A DNA stretch of 21,308 nt from a virus (Duplodnaviria > Heunggongvirae > Uroviricota > Caudoviricetes), in the IMG/VR virus record IMGVR_UViG_3300007747_000074, positions 1 to 21,308 of that record; one strand, written 5' to 3'. Shown here piece by piece: positions 87-19,767 of the stretch. The position numbers and the translations under genes are program-made. How positions within the stretch are numbered: the stretch's first letter is position 1; every line of letters begins with the position of its first letter. The notes beneath the pieces were generated by a model that worked only from the letters and a program-made list of their open reading frames with translations, was not told the origin of the DNA and did no database searches.

Positions 87-701
87 TCACACCGTGTGAC
101 GTTCTGCCGCACACAGGAGGAATTTCTCAATATCAGGCTCAAGGGACGCCGAACGTATCCGGCTGATCAGCTCCTGAGTTTTCGTATCGTCGTACAGTTC
201 ACTGATATCCGGTTTACCGCCCGACGGCTCATAAACAGGCGTATCAATTTTCGTCGTATACGGCTCCTCCTCATTTCCTGTACCGGGCAAAACATCCGTC
301 AACAGTTCATCAATTTCTGTCGGGATGAAGCCTGTCAGGGAGACATCAAAATCAGCATTGATTAGGTCCGACAGCTCCATCCGCAACAGATCTTCATCCC
401 AGCCAGCATTCATCGGCAGGCGATTATCTGCCAGGCGGTACGCCTTTTTCTGCTCATCCGTCAGGCCAGACAGAACAATGACCGGAACAGAATCCATTTT
501 GAGCATTTCAGCCGCCATAACACGACCGTGACCCGCAATAATTTCGCCCTTTTCGTCAATCAGCACCGGATTAGTCCAGCCGAATTGCTTAATACTTTCT
601 ACCAGTTGTGCCACCTGCTCAGTACTGTGCGTCCTGGCGTTGTGCGCATACGGTGACAATTCTTGTAATGGGCGATAGACTATCTTTAATTTCTCGCTCA
701 T
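87..701 (-). CDS. ParB-like nuclease domain protein (positional equivalent of the Rac gene downstream of trkG)
   Basis: 204-aa ORF; N-terminal half has ParB/sulfiredoxin-like motifs (..VLIDEKGEIIAGHGRVMAA.. and ..YRLADNRL..); weak SD (aagg) upstream of ATG at 701; sits directly downstream of trkG on the same strand. Confidence 0.65.
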   Translation of the reverse strand: MSEKLKIVYRPLQELSPYAHNARTHSTEQVAQLVESIKQFGWTNPVLIDEKGEIIAGHGRVMAAEMLKMDSVPVIVLSGLTDEQKKAYRLADNRLPMNAGWDEDLLRMELSDLINADFDVSLTGFIPTEIDELLTDVLPGTGNEEEPYTTKIDTPVYEPSGGKPDISELYDDTKTQELISRIRSASLEPDIEKFLLCAAERHTV

Positions 702-2296: not shown

Positions 2297-2492
2297 ATCT
2301 AAATATTCTTTCAATTATAACCACCTTGCTGCAATATTATGATTATACTGTATAAAATTTAACTCCTCTTAGATCTTACTTCACTGTTCCTTATGAAACA
2401 ATCATCAAAATGAATCATATTGTAGTTAAGATTTTACTTTAAACACTGCTCGGTTATGTATTGCTGAGCACCTTCAAGTTGGGCCTGCATCA

Positions 2493-2795
2493 TTACCAGT
2501 CGTTCCCGGAGGGTGAAATAATCCCGTTCAGCGGTGTCTGCCAGTCGGGGGGAGGCTGCATTATCCACGCCGGAGGCGGTGGTGGCTTCACGCACTGACC
2601 ATCGAGCGCAGCAACATCACGCTGACGCATCTGCATGTCAGTAATTGCCGCGTTCGCCAGCTTCAGTTCTCTGGCATTTTTGTCGCGCTGTTCTTTGTAG
2701 GCGATGGCGTTATCACGGTAATGATTAACACCCCATGACAGGCAGACGACGATGCAGATAACCAGAGCGGAGATAATCGCGGTTACTCTGCTCAT
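2493..2795 (-). pseudogene. Rz/Rz1 spanin remnant: Rz N-terminus fused in frame to Rz1 C-terminus (rzpR-like)
   Basis: First ~65 aa ([33 protein letters not shown]) resemble lambda Rz, then the frame continues into the proline-rich Rz1-type C-terminus ([30 protein letters not shown]); Rz coiled-coil/C-terminal domain and Rz1 signal peptide/lipobox are absent; 4-nt overlap with the endolysin stop. Confidence 0.7.
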
Positions 2796-3268
2796 ACCTC
2801 AATCTCTCTGACCGTTCCGCCAGCTTCTTTGAATTTTGCAATCAGACTGTCAGCCTTATGCTCGAACTGACCATAACCAGCGCCCGGCAGTGAAGCCCAT
2901 ATATTGCTGCAACGGTCGATAGTCTGACGGATATCACCGCGATCAATCATCGGCAAAGCGCCACGCTCTTTAATCTGCTGCAGCGCTACAGCATCCTGAC
3001 TTTCTGGAGAAAAATCTTTCAGGCCAAGTTGCTTGCGGTAGGCATCCCACCAGCGTGAAAGAAGCTGGTAACGTCCAGCGGCTGTTGATTTGAGTTTCGG
3101 ATTTAGCGTGACAAGTTTGCGGGGGTGATCGGAGTAATCAGTGAACAGTTCGCCACCGACAATAACATCATAACCGTGATTTCTGGTTTTCTGCCGTCCG
3201 TTATCTGTTCCTTCTGACCATGCCACCATATCAAGGAAAGCTTTACGCTGGGAATTAAGTGTCTGCAT
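2792..3268 (-). CDS. Endolysin, lambda R-like lytic transglycosylase
   Basis: 158 aa, near-colinear with lambda R as I recall it (..[81 protein letters not shown]..), including the catalytic-glutamate SEGT context; immediately follows the holin. Confidence 0.85.
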
Positions 3269-3271
3269 TAA

Positions 3272-3622
3272 TTACTCCTTATGGGCACCGAACTTGTTAC
3301 CGATGACCCTCATTGCCGCACCACGAATAGCATCAACACCAATCAGCCCCACCCCACCACCAATGGCAACAGAAAGTGATTTAGGCCATCCGACATACTC
3401 AAGCGCGGATGCAAAGGTCAGCGTCAGAGCACCACAAAGCAGAATCTCAAGCGTTTTTCGTTTCCAGCCGCCGCCACCGCCAAAATAGGCAATGCGCAAA
3501 CCAGCCATAATAATTGACATAACCACTGCACCCAGCGGCGTATCTCCACGCCACCAACTTTGTAAGAGTTCCAGTAAGTCAGGCCAGGAATGAGGGGCAT
3601 TGTGCATTTTCATAAGCCTCAC
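3272..3622 (-). CDS. Holin (lambdoid S-like, possible dual start)
   Basis: 116-aa ORF with hydrophobic helices (AVVMSIIMAGLRIAYF; ILLCGALTLTFASALEYV; VAIGGGVGLIGV) and charged C-terminal tail; N-terminus MRLMKM offers closely spaced Met codons like the lambda S107/S105 dual-start motif; sits directly upstream of the endolysin. Confidence 0.65.
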   Translation of the reverse strand: MRLMKMHNAPHSWPDLLELLQSWWRGDTPLGAVVMSIIMAGLRIAYFGGGGGWKRKTLEILLCGALTLTFASALEYVGWPKSLSVAIGGGVGLIGVDAIRGAAMRVIGNKFGAHKE

Positions 3623-4751: not shown

Positions 4752-5207
4752 TCAAGCTATTTTTTGAGCAAATGATTCTCGCATGGGAATATATAGGGCA
4801 TACTCAGCAACAGCCAACCAATTAGCAATTCGCTTTTCGCATGTGCTAAAACACCACTCAGGATGTGCATCATTTAGCAATTCAGCCATTTTGCGCTTAG
4901 TCATCCCCCGTCCTTCATACCGTTGCCGGAGGACACTAATCAATCCAGGATGCTCTGCCAGCACCTCACTTATGACTCGATCAATACATAACGCCTCTGC
5001 ATCAGTACAATGCGCCAGCCAGCTCTTTTGCTTGCCGTTGATCATCTCTCGCAAAAACGCTTCCAGCTCAGCTTTCTCTATTCCCGCTTTTTTCATTCTG
5101 CGCAGGGCTTCATTGATGGCTGTTTTCGTCAATTTTTTGGATGCCAACAACTGATTGAACATATTTCCTGACCTGCCACCGCCAATATACGACCAGCGCC
5201 CCCACAT
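4752..5207 (-). CDS. Putative late-gene antiterminator (Q-like), start uncertain
   Basis: ORF 4752-5414 (220 aa) overlaps the upstream YbcO-like CDS by 124 nt in another frame, so an internal start (Met70 at 5207, or Met85 at 5162) is more plausible; Cys-containing motifs (HCTDAEALC, EWCFSTCEK); assignment is mainly positional (last gene before tR'/lysis cassette). Confidence 0.4.
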   Translation of the reverse strand: MWGRWSYIGGGRSGNMFNQLLASKKLTKTAINEALRRMKKAGIEKAELEAFLREMINGKQKSWLAHCTDAEALCIDRVISEVLAEHPGLISVLRQRYEGRGMTKRKMAELLNDAHPEWCFSTCEKRIANWLAVAEYALYIPMRESFAQKIA

Positions 5208-5290
5208 ACGCAGTTTGCCCTGAATCCAGACACTTTCCAGCGTGGCGAGACGAAGGTGTTCTCCGCTTTTTCCTGTATTCGTTGGGTAAA

Positions 5291-5581
5291 TCACAAATAT
5301 CCCTCCTTTCTCCAGATTTCTTGTGTGCGAAAAACACCTTCTGCATGCATCAGGCGTAATTCTTCTTTGGTGTAATCGCTGGTTTTTACCCGCCCGTCGA
5401 TTAGATCGTGGCATGAGCTACAGGCAATCGCCGCCTGCATATCGTGTGGTTTTGTCGCTGTTCCGCACGTTCCCGCCAGTCGGTAATGCGCCAGCACAGA
5501 CGTTTCCGGATCGTGATTGCAGTAGCCAGGAATTCTGACGGTGCACATCTGCCCCCGCGCCGCTTTACGTAAATCCACCAT
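5291..5581 (-). CDS. YbcO-like (DUF1364) putative Zn-binding nuclease, nin region
   Basis: 96 aa; MVDLRKAARGQMCTVRIPGYCNHDPETSVLAHYRLAG.CGT.TKP..ACSSCHD resembles DLP12 YbcO as I recall it (same length, conserved Cys/His); start overlaps the upstream gene stop (TAATG). Confidence 0.7.
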   Translation of the reverse strand: MVDLRKAARGQMCTVRIPGYCNHDPETSVLAHYRLAGTCGTATKPHDMQAAIACSSCHDLIDGRVKTSDYTKEELRLMHAEGVFRTQEIWRKEGYL

Positions 5582-7579: not shown

Positions 7580-8026
7580 CGTTAAACGTCTTGCAGGACG
7601 CGTAATGTTAACTGGGGCTTTTCTCTATCTACCTTTGGTGTTCATGCCCGAGGCAGATAGCCTCAAGCACCCACAGCAATTCTAACTATCCAATACATCA
7701 CTGCCAACACTTTAAACTCTTACCCTTTAAAACAAGAACAAAATTCAACCAATCAGCATTGGGCGTATACTCATATCCTAGAGAAAACAACTCTTTCTGT
7801 ACTATTTATATCCATATGATTTATAAGCATTTGCCACTTGCCATAGCCGCACAATGACAGTTTGCCATTTGATGTCAATAGATAAAAATGATCGTTTTCA
7901 ATGAGTTACATACTTGCAAGGCGTTGCACATCAGGCCCGATTACGTCAGTATCAAAAGATTACAGATGGTGCATTACTGCCACCTCGCCTTAATGTTCCA
8001 GAACTCTCCAACTTGAGGAATTTTCA

Positions 8027-10023: not shown

Positions 10024-10698
10024 TCACTTTTCCGATGCAACATGGCGGGAAGAATCAGTAATCTGTCGTACAATATCCCTGTGCTTGTTCAGCTCCCGCA
10101 GCGCGGCGCAGACACGCTCCCACTTCTGGACATGATTTTTCGCCCGACGCAGTTCGCGGTTTGCCATATGCAGTGATGGTAAAACCAGGTCATCCGCTCG
10201 CGTTTCAGTAAACGATGGCAGCGACTGCACAATGTCCGCCACAGTTTCTGTTTTAATATCTTCCTGTGTTGCAGCCTCCTGTACTGGTAACGCAACACCT
10301 GCGGGCTGAGGAAAGGCCTTACCAGCAGTTTCCGCTACCGATGCTGCTTTCGGCTCTGCTGGTAAATTATCGCCCGGTATGCAGTAACGAAATTTACCGC
10401 CCTGATTTACGCGAAGCAGACGACCTTTGCTGATTGCCATTGCCAGCGTTGAAGCCACTTTGCGTGATGTGGTACCAAACAATGTAGCCAGCTCATCCGC
10501 CGTTTGTGGTCCACGTTGTTCAATCGTCGCAGTTAAATCGCTCTCTGAAATTTTCGCGACTGTTGCCGTGGTAGTTTCTTCCGGCAGTTCTGCCGGCGCT
10601 GGCTGTTCCTGCTGAACGTTGTTATCAGCCACACGCCAGGTGTACGCGCTTTTATCAACGAAACCAGCCTTTTTCAGTTCCCATAGTTCGTTCAGCAC
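10024..10698 (-). CDS. Hypothetical phage protein (224 aa) with possible winged-helix segment
   Basis: ORF downstream of the DnaC-like gene; segment [32 protein letters not shown] resembles a wHTH; acidic/Ala-Pro-rich low-complexity middle. Confidence 0.5.
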
Positions 10699-10784
10699 TT
10701 CTTCACGACTGATATCATGTGGCTTTTCCCATTGCTTTCAGTACGTCAAAAACAGTCTCCATTAAATTTTTCTCCCGGTAAAAA

Positions 10785-19578: not shown

Positions 19579-19767
19579 ATGTATAAAATTACCGCCACTA
19601 TTGAAAAGGAAGGTGGCACTCCTACTAACTGGACAAGATATTCAAAATCTAAACTAACGAAATCAGAATGCGAAAAAATGCTCTCAGGTAAAAAAGAAGC
19701 AGGCGTTTCCAGAGAGCAGAAAGTAAAACTGATAAATTTTAATTGCGAGAAACTTCAGTCCTCGTGA
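19579..19767 (+). CDS. ydaC: YdaC-like small protein
   Basis: MYKITATIEKEGGTPTNWTRYSKSKLTKSECEKMLSGKKEAGVSREQKVKLINFNCEKLQSS; alternative upstream starts at 19567 and 19507 exist in the ORF; position between ralR and xis. Confidence 0.5.
   Translation: MYKITATIEKEGGTPTNWTRYSKSKLTKSECEKMLSGKKEAGVSREQKVKLINFNCEKLQSS

Follow-up and report, generated by a model that had tools for sequence, protein, structure and literature searches.

A probable 103-nt deletion joins the embedded spanin genes Rz and Rz1 into one chimeric reading frame in a Rac-family prophage of E. coli

The stretch of DNA analysed in this study (hereafter the window, meaning the entire 21,308-base sequence) is a Rac-family prophage of E. 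coli, and about 160 complete E. coli genomes match it at an identity of at least 99.9% over at least 80% of its length. The order of its genes on the minus strand can be read from the annotated equivalent in strain YDC107 (L003): from the right end to the left it comprises intR, xisR, ralR, recT, recE, kilR, sieB, the immunity and replication genes, hok/sok, Q (DUF1133), an ORF of 189 aa, the holin, the endolysin, Rz/Rz1, trkG and a parB-like gene. At the position of the spanin genes, however, the window carries one chimeric ORF instead of the two nested genes of the intact allele. The features of the lysis region are as follows:

2493-2795, minus strand: chimeric ORF of 100 aa, made of Rz residues 1-65, one glycine and Rz1 residues 28-61, followed by the stop codon (list of open reading frames; partial Pfam matches to Rz and Rz1; phrog_13 and phrog_3198)
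2600-2795, minus strand: retained 5' part of Rz (CDS nt 1-196), encoding the N-terminal transmembrane domain (TMD, aa 1-24) and the proximal part of coiled-coil 1 (alignment to the intact allele and to lambda; hydropathy; domain limits from PMC5295617)
2493-2599, minus strand: retained 3' part of Rz1 (Rz1 nt 80-186), with Cys29, the proline-rich region and the C-terminus, now the tail of the chimera
between 2599 and 2600: deletion junction, at which Rz CDS nt 197-299 are missing (positions 3221-3323 of L001, the intact allele of ON470614)
2434-2599, minus strand: stranded 3' part of Rz, codons 101-154 (linker, coiled-coil 2 and C-terminus), out of frame with the Rz start (Pfam Phage_lysis positions 76-125; phrog_13 positions 104-154)
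2792-3268, minus strand: intact endolysin of the lambda R type, 158 aa, 94% identical to lambda R and 100% identical in DNA to YDC107 (phrog_90, endolysin)
3272-3613, minus strand: intact holin of the lambda family, 113 aa, with an MKM dual-start motif (Pfam Phage_holin_3_1, 2.1e-27; phrog_126, holin/anti-holin), identical to the annotated YDC107 holin
4752-5294, minus strand: intact homologue of the late-gene antiterminator Q (DUF1133 / Phage_antitermQ), upstream of the lysis cassette (Pfam; annotation of the identical YDC107 locus)

The DNA between positions 2600 and 7581 is 100% identical to that of YDC107, and the neighbouring lysis genes are therefore intact; holin, endolysin and Q are all identical to those of intact relatives. 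On the other side of the lysis cassette, the Trk K+ transporter gene trkG (Pfam TrkH, 5e-145) is present at full length at positions 839-2314 of the minus strand; it is a moron flanked by the cassette and the parB-like gene, as in the Rac prophage of K-12. The parB-like gene itself (ParB/Srx-like; 87-701, minus strand) is cut to 204 of 263 codons by the end of an IS3-family element, of which positions 1-88 of the window are the terminus (98.9% identical to an IS copy in strain E09). The window ends inside this element and covers the prophage up to that point; any structural genes would lie beyond it.

The chimera begins as a normal Rz gene. Its start codon overlaps the stop codon of the endolysin (ATGA), it is preceded by a GAGG Shine-Dalgarno sequence, and the mean Kyte-Doolittle hydropathy of its aa 1-25 is 2.1-2.5, in agreement with the N-terminal TMD of a type II inner-membrane protein. 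The C-terminus, by contrast, is hydrophilic and proline-rich. Both halves are recognized by profile searches, each in part and in collinear order: aa 29-69 match Pfam Phage_lysis (Rz, PF03245; profile positions 1-41 of 126), while aa 67-98 match Pfam Rz1 (PF06085; profile positions 8-40 of 41, E = 1.2e-17). Similarly, PHROGs aligns the chimera with positions 1-67 of 154 of the i-spanin family phrog_13 and with positions 28-61 of 68 of the o-spanin family phrog_3198. The proline-rich C-terminal domain of mature Rz1 is thus present in the window solely as the tail of the chimera. A complete i-spanin periplasmic domain, on the other hand, is no longer encoded, codons 66-100 being deleted and codons 101-154 lying out of frame; the only ORF found in the stranded 3' part of Rz is a GTG-started one of 53 aa (2434-2595, minus strand) that has no TMD.

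Alignment of the DNA to the intact allele (L001) and to strain YDC107 revealed a single gap of 103 nt, flanked on both sides by sequence that is 100% identical to both references, and alignment to lambda likewise gave one gap of 103 nt. The intact allele encodes an Rz of 154 aa; the start of its 61-aa Rz1, which has the lipobox LVVVGC and ends in ...GNDW, lies at Rz nt 221, in the +1 frame. Only the first base of Rz codon 66 is left before the breakpoint, the other end of the deletion falls within Rz1 codon 27, and the hybrid codon at the junction is GGT (Gly). From Rz it removes codons 66-100, that is, the distal part of coiled-coil 1 and a part of the linker. From Rz1 it removes the 24 nt upstream of the gene (the ribosome-binding region) together with Rz1 nt 1-79, so that codons 1-26 and the first base of codon 27 are lost, and with them the start codon, the signal peptide, the lipobox and Cys20. 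Since 103 equals 3n+1, the Rz reading frame continues in the frame of Rz1 and runs to the Rz1 stop. The ORF is a deletion product that joins the N-terminus of Rz to the C-terminus of Rz1.

No microhomology was detected at 2599|2600, and a search of the deletion end points returned no flanking direct repeat. The deleted segment forms no hairpin that would join the two ends (DNA fold z-score +1.95). An imperfect 13-nt inverted repeat (L001 3213-3225 / 3360-3372) was considered as a cause and not accepted, as it overlaps only one of the ends.

These results bear on an earlier examination of the same DNA (the sequence-only reading), in which the ORF was taken to begin as Rz and to end as the proline-rich C-terminus of Rz1, with holin and endolysin apparently intact. 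The collinear profile matches and the identity to YDC107 agree with this on all points. That reading had further postulated a frame-shifting deletion of about 120 nt and had proposed an alignment to the lambda Rz/Rz1 DNA, which has now placed the end points at 2599|2600: the frame-shifting deletion is there, but its size is 103 nt. The loss of the Rz1 signal peptide and lipobox was correctly anticipated and in fact extends to the Rz1 start codon. The periplasmic domain of Rz, however, was not removed as a whole, as had been supposed; only codons 66-100 are deleted, and the remainder persists out of frame at 2434-2599.

In order to find any separate Rz1 gene, all six frames of the whole window were scanned for small ORFs in which a basic N-terminus is combined with a hydrophobic core and a lipobox. 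The scan recovered Rz1/RzoR in all four intact loci that served as positive controls, namely L001, lambda (L002), YDC107 (L003) and K-12 (L005), as well as Bor in lambda. In the window it returned no lipobox ORF and hence no separate intact Rz1, a gene whose discovery would have overturned the sequence-only reading of a chimera. An o-spanin with a start codon of its own, a signal peptide and a lipobox with an acylated Cys20 is accordingly not encoded there.

The spanin locus is not the only one at which the window departs from its relatives. Over 21.2 kb, comparison with YDC107 showed 0 substitutions and three private blunt deletions (103, 93 and 23 nt), all of them with at most 1 nt of microhomology. 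The 93-nt deletion, at about position 7581 (L003 10597-10689), takes away the leader of a Hok/Gef-family toxin gene and the first 5-6 codons of that gene, and the Rfam sok match of YDC107 (L003 10610-10780, 101.5 bits) is absent from the window; the hok/sok module is therefore destroyed. The 23-nt deletion, at 10716|10717 (L003 13825-13847), shifts the frame of a DUF1627 (ydaW-like) gene adjoining ydaV after about 15 codons, and the longest ORF left of this gene is GTG-started and 224 aa long (10024-10698). A second type I toxin-antitoxin module of the prophage, ralR/RalA, is preserved, unlike hok/sok: the antitoxin sRNA RalA is intact (Rfam RF02694, 225 bits; 19585-19763, minus strand) and adjoins ralR. 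Neither the 93-nt and 23-nt deletion junctions nor the junction between the IS3 element and the parB-like gene (88|89) were found in 5,426 complete E. coli genomes.

The Rz-Rz1 junction is equally private. Its 44-mer is absent from the same 5,426 complete E. coli genomes, a 32-mer across it was not found in IMG/VR, the JGI metagenomes or the GTDB representative genomes, and an exact-sequence look-up among about 15 billion proteins returned the 100-aa chimera as a singleton, the sole source of which is the window itself (JGI/IMG). A homology search with the chimera, on the other hand, retrieved many proteins with both Pfam domains, and these fall into two classes. The first consists of numerous forms of about 133 aa that are encoded on ENA contigs of about 3.5 kb (about 100 similar contigs). 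One such contig (L009; ENA ERZ22171710 tig00513872) proved to be the last 3.45 kb at the 3' end of lambda, with an identity of 99.6% and seven 1-nt gaps. The forms of about 133 aa come from noisy long-read assemblies, where the reading frame of Rz passes into that of Rz1 through an indel of 1 nt, and the existence of a real family of fused spanins, which double Pfam matches in databases might seem to indicate, is ruled out for them. These contigs are probably nanopore control DNA and resemble the lambda control amplicon. Their spurious Rz-Rz1 'fusion' proteins now fill the protein databases.

The second class comprises forms of 94-117 aa that start as Rz, end as Rz1 and are independent deletion chimeras with other junctions (P0047, P0064, P0034, P0052, P0093 and P0139). 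Two of them were placed on their contigs:

P0047, at L006 1494-1778 and L007 359-643: Rz residues 1-72 joined to Rz1 residues ~40-61, with 121 nt lost; from two separate samples
P0064, at L008 2643-2945: Rz residues 1-78 joined to Rz1 residues ~40-61, with 103 nt lost at another site; from a third sample

All three loci adjoin trkG, and a parB-like gene is also present in L006 and L008. The junctions of P0047 and P0064 show about 2 nt of microhomology, whereas that of the window shows none. The three contigs are trkG-linked prophages from gut-type metagenomes; in L008 trkG is broken as well, with only a fragment of 189 aa called. An Rz-Rz1 fusion ORF is the generic result of every 3n+1 deletion and every +1 slip in the nested gene pair, and such ORFs have arisen repeatedly, some as real lesions and others as artefacts.

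What the chimera would do can be judged from the genetics of lambda, in which Rz consists of a TMD (residues 1-24), coiled-coil 1 (27-87), a linker (89-120), coiled-coil 2 (121-150) and then the C-terminus; every nonsense mutation up to residue 152 is lysis-defective, and the stretch most sensitive to mutation is L64-A73 (PMC5295617). Translation of the chimera would start at the Rz ATG, slip into the Rz1 frame and end at the Rz1 stop. The predicted product would be anchored in the membrane by its Rz part, continue in the periplasm with about 40 residues of coiled-coil 1 and end in the proline-rich C-terminus of Rz1. From Rz it would lack the rest of coiled-coil 1, the hinge, coiled-coil 2 and the C-terminus; from Rz1 it would lack the signal peptide, the lipobox and the acylated Cys20, which would direct Rz1 to the outer membrane. 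Broken at residue 65 and without distal Rz and the Rz1 lipid anchor, the chimera should be null for both spanin subunits, being presumably unable to bridge the inner and outer membranes. Upon induction, the intact holin and endolysin would be expected to kill the cell and to degrade its murein, with disruption of the outer membrane failing. In lambda, when either spanin subunit is defective, the cells become spherical and stay enclosed in an intact outer membrane (PMC5295617), and spherical cells are also the outcome predicted here in Mg2+-stabilised medium. The suspicion, voiced in the sequence-only reading, that the last step of lysis is defective is thus in line with lambda genetics: the prophage should be a double spanin null, in which lysis stalls at the outer membrane.

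The chimera might instead be regarded as a functional protein. As a single ORF at the spanin position, downstream of the endolysin, it could be viewed as a bona fide unimolecular spanin (u-spanin) or as a naturally short spanin variant. Yet a u-spanin combines an N-terminal lipobox with a C-terminal TMD in one polypeptide (PMC5295617), while the chimera has the opposite layout, with its TMD at the N-terminus and the lipobox absent. Moreover, its DNA is 100% identical to a two-component allele apart from one 103-nt gap, and the out-of-frame 3' remnant of Rz is still in place. The alignment refutes this interpretation, against which the sequence-only reading had also set its chimera, and we assign it a negligible probability. 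[quoted passage not shown] The reading frame is open, with the Rz start, the Shine-Dalgarno sequence and the translational coupling to the endolysin all preserved; its product retains the TMD and the region of Rz1 that contacts Rz in lambda, including Cys29 and the proline-rich C-terminus. Against such a role, the allele is a singleton that gives no indication of having spread or been conserved, the junctions of the other chimeras are different, as expected of random 3n+1 deletions rather than of a selected architecture, and none of the features by which o-spanins and u-spanins are defined is present. Furthermore, mutant spanin products apparently do not poison hybrid complexes, and the lysis-defective alleles tested appear to be recessive (PMC5295617). 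That the chimera serves as a dominant-negative 'anti-spanin', which delays or blocks outer-membrane disruption by other lambdoid (pro)phages in the same cell, is therefore a speculation that we consider scarcely credible.

A far more serious alternative is that the organism possesses an intact Rz/Rz1 pair and that the 103-nt gap, together with the two other private deletions, was made during sequencing or assembly of the contig. The route could have been an end-to-end join of sub-contigs over a short coverage gap (gap collapse) or an amplification chimera. Three blunt deletions of 23-103 nt, a size on the scale of read lengths, with next to no microhomology and not one substitution against many identical complete genomes, are a warning on the quality of the contig. 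The lesions lie in unrelated genes (spanin, hok/sok and DUF1627) that share no selective logic, which suggests one common cause, whether technical or mutational. In addition, all four structural junctions are absent from the complete genomes, the protein comes from one JGI/IMG contig, and the Rz-Rz1 chimeras of databases are for the most part products of sequencing errors, namely the lambda 3'-end forms with 1-nt indels. De Bruijn graph assemblers, however, normally need a k-mer that is shared by both ends, and there is none here; the window shows neither the 1-nt indels nor the Ns left by noisy long reads or scaffolding, and the segment excised from Rz is not a hairpin prone to polymerase jumping. 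Comparable deletion alleles are real elsewhere, P0047 having been obtained from two independent samples. On balance, an artefact is the less likely explanation, though a substantial possibility, and a real 103-nt deletion in the embedded spanin pair of a Rac-family prophage, giving a spanin-null chimera, is the probable explanation; it is in this sense that we infer the lesion to exist in the organism and not only in its assembly. A real lesion is supported by the other trkG-linked prophages, in which deletion chimeras arose independently and have different junctions; P0047 and P0064 show that real alleles of this kind do occur. Counting against it are the confinement of junction and protein to this one contig among the collections searched, and a ratio of deletions to substitutions that is unusual for the natural divergence of E. 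coli. If the deletions are real, their common cause could have been an unusual burst of homology-independent illegitimate recombination in vivo in the prophage. Selection does not explain the loss of the spanins, because it brings no obvious advantage to the host while holin and endolysin stay intact.

The locus is a case of ordinary prophage decay, or of contig error, in a well-understood gene pair, and has little importance beyond annotation. If the deletion is real, the prophage would keep a lethal holin-endolysin pair after having lost both spanin subunits in one event, and induced cells would die without efficient release of their contents or of any particles, which would amount to one more step of decay. 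For annotation, Rz-Rz1 fusion ORFs match both Pfam families and look plausible; they should be recorded as pseudogenes and not as a new type of spanin.

Of the known systems, unimolecular spanins of the T1 gp11 type resemble the chimera in being a single polypeptide at the spanin position, but differ in that the TMD is at the opposite end and the lipobox is present, and the chimera matches no family of this kind. The resemblance to lambda Rz/Rz1 is much closer: the position after the R endolysin is the same, the DNA identity is about 93%, and the window has the same TMD at the N-terminus, the same first part of coiled-coil 1 and, embedded in the +1 frame, the same proline-rich end of Rz1. It differs from lambda by the absence of 103 nt (Rz codons 66-100 and Rz1 codons 1-27), by one fused ORF in place of two nested genes, and by the lack of a lipobox and of an in-frame coiled-coil 2 and C-terminus. 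The nearest counterpart is the intact Rac-type allele, which is RzpD/RzoD-like (YDC107, WP_000092309.1; ON470614, prophage vB_EcoS-666R9) and lies in the same context of holin, endolysin, Q and trkG. It encodes a 154-aa Rz and a 61-aa Rz1, each found on more than 1000 contigs, whereas the allele of the window is a singleton. The 'phages' recorded with this intact allele are prophages predicted by PHASTER in clinical isolates (bioRxiv 10.1101/2022.06.29.498070) and, as predictions, do not prove inducibility.

Finally, the Rac prophage of K-12, with its rzpR/rzoR pair, belongs to the same prophage family and likewise has a defective Rz gene at a trkG-adjacent locus, and the sequence-only reading had considered the chimera to mirror its rzpR pseudogene. 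Annotation and alignment lead us to reject such a state for the window and reveal an essentially opposite lesion. The MG1655 rzpR, a pseudogene of 300 nt, follows ydaW directly and starts at about Rz codon 37; it has lost the 5' end of Rz, including the TMD, through a larger upstream deletion and retains the 103 nt that are missing in the window. K-12 keeps an intact gene for the 61-aa RzoR lipoprotein and lacks Q, holin and endolysin, whereas the window has kept the 5' end of Rz along with holin, endolysin and Q, and has lost the 5' end of Rz1.
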